Virus record (IMG/VR): IMGVR_UViG_2671180429_000009
From: a virus
Lineage: Duplodnaviria; Heunggongvirae; Uroviricota; Caudoviricetes
Direction: 5' to 3' (one strand)
Length of the DNA stretch: 4,156 bases
Every line of letters starts with the position of its first letter. Position 1 is the first letter of the stretch. This document shows, piece by piece, positions 1-4,156 of this stretch. Made by a program: the position numbers and the translations under genes. The notes under the pieces were generated by a model. That model had not been told where the DNA came from. It was given only the letters and a program-made list of their open reading frames with translations, and did no database searches.

Positions 1-444
1 GGTATGGTCACCGGGATGGCGGAAGATCTGCAGAGTCTGGTCGGCGGAACGGTGCTCCGGCGTAAGGTTTACGCCCGTTTTCTGGATGCGGTGAACTTCG
101 TCAACGGAAACAGTGACGCCGATCCGGAGCAGGAGGTGATCAGCCGCTGGCGCATCGAGCAGTGCAGCGAACTGAGCGCGGTGAGTGCCTCCTTTGTACT
201 GTCCACGCCGACGGAAACGGATGGCGCTGTTTTTCCGGGACGTATCATGCTGGCCAACACCTGCACCTGGACCTATCGCGGTGACGAGTGCGGTTATCAC
301 GGTCCGGCGGTCGCGGATGAATATGACCAGCCAACGTCCGATATCACGAAGGATAAATGCAGCAAATGCCTGAGCGGTTGTAAGTTCCGCAATAACGTCG
401 GCAACTTTGGCGGCTTCCTTTCCATTAACAAACTTTCGCAGTAA
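1..444 (+). CDS. L: Tail tip protein L (lambda gpL-like), C-terminal ~147 codons; 5' end lies upstream of the window
   Basis: Open frame from nt 1 (codon phase 1) to TAA at 442-444. Translation ...GMVTGMAEDLQSLVGG...CSKCLSGCKFRNNVGNFGGFLSINKLSQ matches my recollection of the lambda gpL C-terminus, including the Cys cluster (codons at 262, 289, 358, 367, 379). The ATG at nt 4 in the ORF track is an internal Met, not the true start. Homology is from memory, not a database search. Confidence 0.93.
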   Translation, partial: GMVTGMAEDLQSLVGGTVLRRKVYARFLDAVNFVNGNSDADPEQEVISRWRIEQCSELSAVSASFVLSTPTETDGAVFPGRIMLANTCTWTYRGDECGYHGPAVADEYDQPTSDITKDKCSKCLSGCKFRNNVGNFGGFLSINKLSQ

Positions 445-449
445 ATCCC

Positions 450-1193
450 ATGACACAGACAGAATCAGCGATTCTGGCGCACGCCCGGCGATGTGCGCCA
501 GCGGAGTCGTGCGGCTTCGTGGTAAGCACGCCGGAGGGGGAAAGATATTTCCCCTGCGTGAATATCTCCGGTGAGCCGGAGGCGTATTTCCGTATGTCGC
601 CGGAAGACTGGCTGCAGGCAGAAATGCAGGGTGAGATTGTGGCGCTGGTCCACAGCCATCCCGGTGGTCTGCCCTGGCTGAGTGAGGCCGACCGGCGGCT
701 GCAGGTGCAGAGTGATTTGCCGTGGTGGCTGGTCTGCCGGGGGACGATTCATAAGTTCCGCTGTGTGCCGCATCTCACCGGCCGGCGCTTTGAGCACGGG
801 GTGACGGACTGTTACACGCTGTTCCGGGATGCTTATCATCTGGCGGGGATTGAGATGCCGGATTTTCATCGCGAGGATGACTGGTGGCGTCACGGCCAGA
901 ATCTCTATCTGGATAATCTGGAGGCCACAGGGCTGTATCAGGTGCCGTTGTCATCAGCACAACCGGGCGATGTGCTGCTGTGCTGTTTTGGTTCATCGGT
1001 GCCGAATCATGCCGCCATTTACTGTGGTGACGGCGAGCTGCTGCACCATATTCCTGAACAACTGAGCAAACGAGAGAGGTATACCGACAAATGGCAGCGA
1101 CGCACACACTCCCTCTGGCGTCACCGGGCATGGCGCGCATCTGCCTTTACGGGGATTTACAACGATTTGGCCGCCGCATCGACCTTCGTGTGA
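450..1193 (+). CDS. K: Tail tip assembly protein K (lambda gpK-like), JAB/MPN metallopeptidase + NlpC/P60 cysteine peptidase domains; long form of 247 aa (alternative start ATG at 594 would give 199 aa)
   Basis: ORF of 247 codons starting 5 nt after the L stop. JAMM motif H68-x-H70-x7-S78-x2-D81 (nt 651-692), with an upstream E19-x2-G-x2-V element (nt 504-524). NlpC/P60-like triad candidates: C121 (nt 810-812), H187 (nt 1008-1010), H199/H200. Sequence matches recalled lambda K. No obvious Shine-Dalgarno before ATG 450, so translational coupling to L is possible. Confidence 0.9.
   Translation: MTQTESAILAHARRCAPAESCGFVVSTPEGERYFPCVNISGEPEAYFRMSPEDWLQAEMQGEIVALVHSHPGGLPWLSEADRRLQVQSDLPWWLVCRGTIHKFRCVPHLTGRRFEHGVTDCYTLFRDAYHLAGIEMPDFHREDDWWRHGQNLYLDNLEATGLYQVPLSSAQPGDVLLCCFGSSVPNHAAIYCGDGELLHHIPEQLSKRERYTDKWQRRTHSLWRHRAWRASAFTGIYNDLAAASTFV
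578..596 (+). promoter_or_regulatory. Internal Shine-Dalgarno plus in-frame ATG inside K (candidate alternative start giving the 199-aa form)
   Basis: GGAGG at 578-582, 11 nt upstream of the in-frame ATG at 594-596 (Met49 of the long ORF). As I recall, the classical lambda annotation places the K start here. Confidence 0.4.
1073..1093 (+). promoter_or_regulatory. Ribosome-binding site and start codon of I, embedded in the K coding sequence
   Basis: Purine-rich gagagagg (1073-1080) 10 nt upstream of ATG 1091-1093. Confidence 0.45.
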
Positions 1194-1762
1194 AAACGGG
1201 GGCTGAAGCCATCCGGGCGCTGGCCACACAGCTCCCGGCGTTTCGTCAGAAACTGAGCGACGGCTGGTATCAGGTACGGATTTCCGGGCGGGACGTCAGC
1301 ACGTCCGGATTGACGGCGCAGTTACATGAGGTTCTGCCTGACGGCGCTGTGATTCATATTGTTCCCAGAGTCGCCGGGGCCAAGTCAGGGGGCGTATTCC
1401 AGATTGTTCTGGGGGCTGCCGCCATTGCCGGATCATTCTTTACTGCCGGAGCCACCCTTGCAGCATGGGGGGCAGCCATTGGGGCCGGTGGTATGACCAG
1501 TATCCTGTTTTCTCTCGGTGCCAGTATGGTACTTGGTGGTGTGGCGCAGATGCTGGCACCGAAAGCCAGGACGCCCACGGCAGCAAGTACAGATAACGGC
1601 AAACAGAACACCTATTTCTCCTCACTGGATAACATGGTTGCCCAGGGCAATGTTCTGCCCGTTCTGTACGGTGAAATGCGCGTGGGGTCGCGGGTGGTCT
1701 CTCAGGAGATCAGCACGGCAGACGAAGGGGATGGTGGTCAGGTTGTGGTGATTGGTCGCTGA
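1091..1762 (+). CDS. I: Tail tip assembly protein I (lambda gpI-like), N-terminal ubiquitin-like beta-grasp domain followed by Gly/Ala-rich hydrophobic region
   Basis: 223-codon ORF in a different frame from K, overlapping the K 3' end by 103 bp. GA-rich Shine-Dalgarno (gagagagg, nt 1073-1080) 10 nt upstream of ATG 1091. Translation matches recalled lambda gpI. Stop TGA at 1760-1762. Confidence 0.9.
   Translation: MAATHTLPLASPGMARICLYGDLQRFGRRIDLRVKTGAEAIRALATQLPAFRQKLSDGWYQVRISGRDVSTSGLTAQLHEVLPDGAVIHIVPRVAGAKSGGVFQIVLGAAAIAGSFFTAGATLAAWGAAIGAGGMTSILFSLGASMVLGGVAQMLAPKARTPTAASTDNGKQNTYFSSLDNMVAQGNVLPVLYGEMRVGSRVVSQEISTADEGDGGQVVVIGR

Positions 1763-1810: not shown

Positions 1811-4156
<2,346 letters not shown>

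Follow-up and report, generated by a model that had tools for sequence, protein, structure and literature searches.

The DNA analysed here, called the window throughout, is a 4,156-nt stretch that carries the tail-tip genes of a lambda-like prophage in the order L-K-I-J. Gene calls in the window rest on the list of its open reading frames (ORFs), on Pfam matches and on annotated records, and give the following layout.

4..444, + strand: 3' part of gene L, minor tail protein L (Pfam Phage_tail_L, E = 6.5e-67; ORF list; annotations)
442-444, + strand: TAA stop codon of L, 5 nt before the K start
450..1193, + strand: gene K, full-length coding sequence of 247 aa, with a JAB/JAMM domain and then an NlpC/P60 (C40) domain
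1091..1762, + strand: gene I, ubiquitin-like tail assembly protein (Pfam Lambda_tail_I, residues 14-97)
from 1822: 5' part of gene J

The window is not identical to lambda, and the phage record closest to it reaches 96.9% identity. Its positions 300-1300 match a prophage of E. coli O103:H2 strain PV16-126 with 100% identity, and copies related to this stretch are present in 4,375 of 5,426 complete E. coli genomes. An Rfam scan of the window gave zero matches, and a scan of the window for promoters and terminators gave none exceeding shuffled expectation. Between I and J, at 1781-1800, there is a GC-rich hairpin (AACCGCC-TGCG-GGCGGTT), after which comes a T-rich run; the phage 21 record marks it as a terminator, and our simple terminator scan missed it. 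A 481-codon ORF lies antisense to J on the minus strand (2422-3867) and probably just reflects J's GC-rich codon usage. Another antisense ORF, which overlaps K (465..893, 142 aa), was set aside as a GC-rich coding by-product.

Gene I overlaps the 3' end of K in a different frame and has two candidate starts, namely ATG 1091 (the classical one, giving 223 aa) and ATG 1130, which is more widely conserved. ATG 1091 comes with a GAGAGG Shine-Dalgarno sequence and is confined to close relatives. ATG 1130 corresponds to Met14 of the classical 223-aa protein ('MARICLYGDLQRFGRR') and is kept across genera (loci L037-L054); in all relatives, I read from an ATG of this type shares 58-67 nt with the 3' end of K, in a different frame. 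The start given by PGAP is GTG 1190 (190 aa), which would drop the first strand of the ubiquitin-like domain, as the Pfam Lambda_tail_I match begins at residue 14.

In gene K, the following features bear on where the protein starts and on what it is.

450..452, + strand: ATG start codon of K, 5 nt past the L stop, with an equivalent ATG in 25/25 loci
456..761, + strand: JAB/JAMM (MPN+) metalloprotease domain, residues 3-104 (Pfam PF14464, AlphaFold, Foldseek)
504-506, + strand: Glu19 codon GAG, the JAMM glutamate, in the context E19-S-C-G22-F-V-V25 (conserved, and aligned to JAMM structures)
578..582, + strand: GGAGG, Shine-Dalgarno-like, formed by codons Pro43-Glu44-Ala45, 11 nt before ATG 594
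584, + strand: G missing from J02459/NC_001416, where it would follow reference position 14266 (alignment)
594..596, + strand: internal ATG (Met49), the classical 199-aa lambda K start, here an ordinary internal codon of K
651..692, + strand: H68-S69-H70-x7-S78-x2-D81, metal-binding part of the JAMM motif (His and Asp invariant, 102/102)
651-653, 657-659, 681-683 and 690-692, + strand: codons of His68, His70, Ser78 and Asp81, respectively
780..1121, + strand: NlpC/P60 (C40) cysteine peptidase domain, residues 111-224 (Pfam PF00877)
810-812, + strand: codon of Cys121, a catalytic candidate

A sequence-only reading of the same DNA had described an uninterrupted ORF of 247 aa from ATG 450, and the ORF list agrees (450..1193, + strand). 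It had also placed an H-x-H-x7-S-x2-D motif at residues 68-81, which lies at 651-692, and had identified Met49 with ATG 594, preceded by GGAGG 11 nt upstream, which is correct. Its E-x2-G-x2-[LV] element at residues 19-24 needs amending: the Glu19 element is there, but it ends at Val25. We conclude, with a probability of about 0.9, that the upstream ATG 450 is the start of K in this lambda-like phage, and that the protein has 247 residues and two peptidase domains. What the analysis demonstrates is the gene model, along with the boundaries of the domains and the conservation.

The N-terminal domain gives a clear contrast between the two forms of the protein. Long K matches the Prok-JAB profile (PF14464) over residues 3-104, corresponding to profile positions 3-112 of 114 (52.3 bits, E = 6e-14), whereas the Met49 form matches only profile positions 63-112, with 23.3 bits, under the curated cut-off of 25. 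Residues 3-48 are worth ~29 bits of the Prok-JAB score, and as the alignment begins at residue 3, the profile favours the long form. The short E-x2-G motif is by itself weak evidence, but the N-terminal segment as a whole is far beyond chance. Glu19, which is encoded solely in the 247-aa form, lines up with the Glu of P. furiosus JAMM1, 2kks and 2kcq in a profile search of PDB sequences (a '..P.E.CG..V' strand). Glu19 and the 68-81 motif fit the JAMM definition E-xn-H-S/T-H-x7-S-x2-D, as set out in PMC300881, where lambda K was counted among JAMM proteins, from the 199-residue entry.

Structure prediction points the same way. The AlphaFold2 model of 247-aa K, built on an alignment of 102 sequences (pLDDT 97.3, pTM 0.91), has a helix at residues 3-15 and strands at 21-27 and 30-36 within the JAB domain. 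Met49 falls at the start of the second helix of this domain, and a protein starting there would be without the catalytic glutamate, helix 1 and the first two strands; the earlier claim that the Met49 form lacks Glu19 and the first strands is thus borne out by the HMM, the AlphaFold model and Foldseek. When searched against the PDB with Foldseek, long K matches JAMM1 (5ld9_A) over 109 columns (rmsd 2.6, target TM 0.66, E = 1.2e-4), with further matches to CSN5, Rpn11 and AMSH, whereas the Met49 form matches JAMM1 over 62 columns (TM 0.41, E = 0.12). Comparison of both forms with JAMM folds, as suggested in the sequence-only reading, hence yields the larger match for the long form. This fold search is the sole informative structural contrast of the 247- and 199-aa forms: AlphaFold returns the same local structure for the 199-aa form (pLDDT 97.1), and its confidence cannot tell whether the truncated JAB half folds. 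By its Glu, its H-S/T-H-x7-S-x2-D motif, its profile score and its modelled fold, the JAB domain of K is a JAMM/MPN+ domain, for which zinc binding and (iso)peptidase activity are predicted. The long form is accordingly the better candidate for the functional peptidase on HMM, structural and conservation grounds, as the first of the two alternatives in the sequence-only reading has it; all of its suggested checks that were run here point to the long form.

The C-terminal domain is common to both forms. PF00877 scores 49.3 bits over residues 111-224, against a cut-off of 23, and a Foldseek search with the C-terminal half of K retrieves MepS/Spr, LytE, CwlO and other NlpC/P60 enzymes. Of 102 homologues, 101 have Cys121, and the same number holds for His187 and for His199, the other two C40 catalytic candidates; Asp120 occurs in all 102. 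Score, Cys-His-His residues and the papain-like fold of the model identify this part of K as an NlpC/P60 (C40) peptidase domain.

A search of 1.8 billion representatives returned 1,743 K relatives at E <= 1e-10, and K homologues are mostly 242-249 aa long and span the whole query. In relatives at 35-50% identity, query residues ~4-10 align to their own residues ~3-15; as these distant relatives align near their own N-termini, the latter coincide with ATG 450. We counted residue conservation over 102 aligned homologues, diverse and of full length. Glu19 is found in 101 of them, Gly22, Asn38, His68, His70 and Asp81 in all 102, and Ser78 in 96, while position 49 is chiefly Ile (64 homologues), then Met (17), Leu (12) and Val (six).

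The same holds at the DNA level among 25 loci, which include Citrobacter, Edwardsiella, Budvicia, Limnobaculum, Spirabiliibacterium, Testudinibacter, Avibacterium and an Aeromonadaceae MAG. An upstream ATG giving a protein of 241-247 aa is present in every one of them, and in most loci it follows the L stop by 3-11 nt. The ATG of the 199-aa type is missing in nine of the 25, namely eight diverged loci and L027, an E. ruysiae prophage that is 96% identical and has Leu at position 49. Compared with Citrobacter loci (dS ~1), codons 2-48 show a dN/dS of 0.16-0.5, near the values for the rest of the gene: these codons are under purifying selection. Some database proteins fuse L and K (P0020, P0034, P0042, P0046 and P0047, with PF05100 + PF14464 + PF00877); genuine fusions are one possibility, gene calls frameshifted over the 5-nt L-K gap another. 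The PHROG family phrog_30 has 544 positions, of which K matches 290-541.

In NC_001416, lambda K is annotated at 14276..14875, which is the classical 199-aa form named in the sequence-only reading. The difference can be traced to a single base. Around reference position 14266, lambda NC_001416 reads GGAGGC-TATTTCC, whereas the window, phage 21 and 2G7b read GGAGGCGTATTTCC in the alignment. The missing G frameshifts the long ORF, and the 247-aa K frame is therefore nonexistent in the J02459/NC_001416 record; as the 45 upstream codons are out of frame in NC_001416, the first in-frame ATG available is the one at 14276.

The G-less state is specific to the lambda reference, and all independent lambda sequences have the G. 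Among 124 matching phage records it is found in four (J02459, NC_001416, OR474059 and OR974322), while the G is present in DE3, KT232076, PV340536, LC730321 (48,503 bp) and the lambda imm21, imm434 and h434 hybrids. In addition, 15 lambda-identical contigs in unrelated assemblies (L010, L012-L014, L016-L021, L029, L032, L034, L035 and L051, from genome_contigs) show 0 mismatches to lambda and exactly one gap, and all carry the G. We took these contigs as lambda sequenced again, independently of the reference. Most likely they represent stray (commercial or control) lambda DNA. Their assemblies are labelled Neobacillus, Pseudomonas, Shewanella, Chromatium, Leeuwenhoekiella, Paenibacillus, Bradyrhizobium, Kitasatospora and others, and several of the contigs state ~1x read coverage in their names. 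The extra base is also present in all 240 sampled metagenome and viral (IMG/VR) contigs matching the flanks (G in 239, T in one). Finally, the best identity to the G-less version over 7,745 places in complete E. coli genomes is 99.2%, which means that every E. coli copy has the extra base and that the G-less version occurs at none of these places.

Two changes in the MutaMouse lambda-gt10 transgene, '14266 C>CG' and '137 AG>A', have been described as constitutional differences from the reference (PMC6760142). The latter corresponds to a second indel private to the lambda reference, at positions 137-139 (L066-L069), where it has GCGAGGC and both LC730321 and the MutaMouse transgene have GCGAGC; the reference-private GG at ~138 sits upstream of nu1. 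LC730321 shows both differences from the reference (14266 and 137), and OR974322 and OR474059 show neither. As these two G-less records share both reference-private states, they look reference-derived. The breseq lambda tutorial is also said to list '14,266 +G'. Our literature search found no paper that connects the reading frame of K with the +G variant at 14266.

The simplest reading is that the omission of the G is a one-base error of the 1982 lambda sequence, in a GC-rich run. We consider it very unlikely that the G-less state was real in the 1982 stock and that K works without its N-terminal 48 residues. Such a state does recur in OR974322 and OR474059, but both of these later records share the reference-private indel near 138, which is absent from independent sequencing, and the G is carried by the lambda-identical contigs, lambda-gt10, DE3 and the imm hybrids. 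Moreover, the site is a GC-rich GGAGGCG run, of a kind that would be prone to gel compression. The textbook 199-residue lambda K stems from the G omitted in the 1982 reference and not from a choice of start codon, and the sequence of lambda itself, once the G is restored, encodes the same 247-residue form of K.

How K is initiated is a separate matter. There is no Shine-Dalgarno match at ATG 450 (duplex dG +0.7), and this start lies 5 nt past the L stop (3-11 nt in most relatives), which points to termination-reinitiation coupling: translation of K would begin at ATG 450, most likely with ribosomes coming straight from the stop codon of L, and the initiation of K is probably coupled to L termination, to judge from the arrangement of the two genes. 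This coupling, together with the catalytic activity and the substrate of K, is the part of our account that we infer. A literature search for the N-terminus of K returned no proteomic or ribosome-profiling data. Counting against ATG 450 is the lack of a Shine-Dalgarno sequence there, whereas ATG 594 has a strong GGAGG, whose duplex with the 3' end of 16S rRNA has a dG of -9.5 kcal/mol with a spacer of 10-11 nt; OM418627 annotates this GGAGG (578..582) as the ribosome-binding site of K.

These signals could be taken to mean that two isoforms are made, one of 247 aa from ATG 450 and the other of 199 aa by internal initiation at ATG 594 via GGAGG, the latter with an intact NlpC/P60 domain and a broken, inactive JAB domain. 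The strength of the anti-Shine-Dalgarno match and the ATG start codon speak for this, the GGAGG/ATG pair is conserved in close lambda relatives, and nested in-frame initiations occur elsewhere in lambda (C/Nu3, S107/S105). Against it, Met is found at position 49 in just 17 of the 102 homologues and is replaced by Leu in L027, the GGAGG is made of protein-constrained codons (Pro43-Glu44-Ala45), the spacer exceeds the optimum and the short product would bare half a beta-sheet. Two isoforms are thus unlikely. It is quite unlikely, too, that lambda-like phages deliberately make a JAMM + C40 K plus a C40-only Met49 form that modulates or caps tail-tip assembly; if true, a nested K pair would have been hidden for 40 years by a reference-sequence error.

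Starts that would do away with the long form altogether fare worse. It is extremely improbable that K is made from Met49 only (199 aa), with the upstream 144 nt untranslated or forming a separate small ORF, as implied by the annotation of J02459/NC_001416, DE3 and the lambda h434 imm21 records. Despite its good Shine-Dalgarno sequence, this start is contradicted by the conservation, dN/dS, HMM and fold evidence, and the annotation itself derives from a record whose long frame is disrupted by the missing base; conservation and domain completeness led us to reject Met49 as sole start. An intermediate start, at GTG 519 (224 aa, NC_049954) or GTG 558 (211 aa, KT232076), was picked by gene callers in some records, and GTG 519 has a weak GGAG 12 nt upstream (dG -6.1). 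Either of them, however, loses Glu19 and helix 1, and these GTGs are missing in the diverged loci L042, L043, L048 and L050, while the upstream ATG is present throughout. Both GTGs were rejected for the same two reasons, conservation and domain completeness, and we rate an intermediate start as highly improbable. ATG 450 is therefore retained as the start of K.

Several models of K coexist in databases. K is annotated with 247 aa in phage 21 (OL657228), in PV340536 and by PGAP on E. coli chromosomes; the 100% identical gene in the E. coli O103:H2 prophage is one such case (PGAP/RefSeq, WP_001361515.1). It has 224 aa (GTG 519) in RefSeq NC_049954, 211 aa (GTG 558) in KT232076 and 199 aa in lambda, in DE3 and in the lambda imm hybrids, including records that do have the G. 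UniProt P03729 (lambda K) is presumably also 199 aa long.

The long K gene model is already in RefSeq and the JAB + NlpC/P60 architecture was published in 2006, so that the biology is already known; what is new here is the cause of the truncated canonical lambda K entry, one missing G. The remaining value lies in the case for correcting this entry (NP_040598 / AAA96551), which is still copied into new records although it is without a quarter of the JAB domain and without the catalytic glutamate. Anyone cloning, modelling or mutating 'lambda K' from the reference works on a truncated protein that is probably unable to fold, and annotation seeded from the truncated entry keeps yielding K genes of 199, 211 and 224 residues.

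As to function, K would be a 247-residue, non-virion tail-assembly protein with two peptidase domains. In the JAMM domain (residues ~3-104), the zinc ligands would be His68, His70 and Asp81, with Glu19 as the general base for the water bound to the metal and Ser78 as support for the transition state; residues ~111-224 would form an NlpC/P60 cysteine peptidase with Cys121, His187 and His199. Lambda K is needed for tail assembly and absent from virions (PMC12617516, PMC10721106). Iyer et al. 2006 (PMC1779556) describe K proteins as JAB + NlpC/P60 beside the ubiquitin-like protein I, and propose protein I as the target of the JAB domain, with a cut after the glycine at the C-terminal end of the beta-grasp domain. 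K may be a deubiquitinase-like enzyme acting on protein I, as proposed in 2006. Of protein I in the lambda virion, the tail tip shows residues 135-223 only as resolved, which is consistent with the cleavage proposal without being proof of it. Our literature search found no published assay of K activity or substrate. The corrected K model makes the proposal that K acts on ubiquitin-like I cleanly testable.

Among known systems, the closest is lambda gpK (NP_040598 / AAA96551, 199 aa), which is the same gene in the same L-K-I-J order. K of the window differs from true lambda K (locus L010) by three amino acids over 247 codons, but the gpK database entry, unlike K of the window, is without residues 1-48, because the reference DNA omits one G. 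More broadly, K of the window is a typical member of the TAPK family (Iyer, Burroughs and Aravind 2006), with an identical two-domain architecture and an identical TAPI neighbourhood: Pfam matches and annotations place it between L and the ubiquitin-like I, upstream of J. The sections of that paper on the TAPK family do not discuss the truncated lambda K entry.

Each domain also has relatives outside phage tails. The K JAB domain shares its fold, the E...HxH...S..D residues and its approximate size with the JAMM proteins P. furiosus JAMM1 (5ld9/5lda), AfJAMM (1r5x/1oi0), DSY2949 (2kks) and 2kcq. JAMM1 cleaves the ubiquitin-like SAMP2 (title of the 5lda entry), and K scores 29.7 bits with the NCBIfam desampylase model NF041370, far below its equivalog cut-off of 130 bits. 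Unlike these stand-alone JAMM proteins, K is fused to a C40 peptidase and lies in a phage tail operon, and its activity is a predicted one. Similarly, the C-terminal domain of K has its fold and Cys-His-His residues in common with E. coli MepS/Spr and with B. subtilis LytE and CwlO. In contrast to them, K has no signal peptide and no cell-wall-binding modules and is a non-virion protein, which makes it doubtful that K cuts peptidoglycan during infection; Iyer et al. (PMC1779556) suggest that K processes protein I instead.
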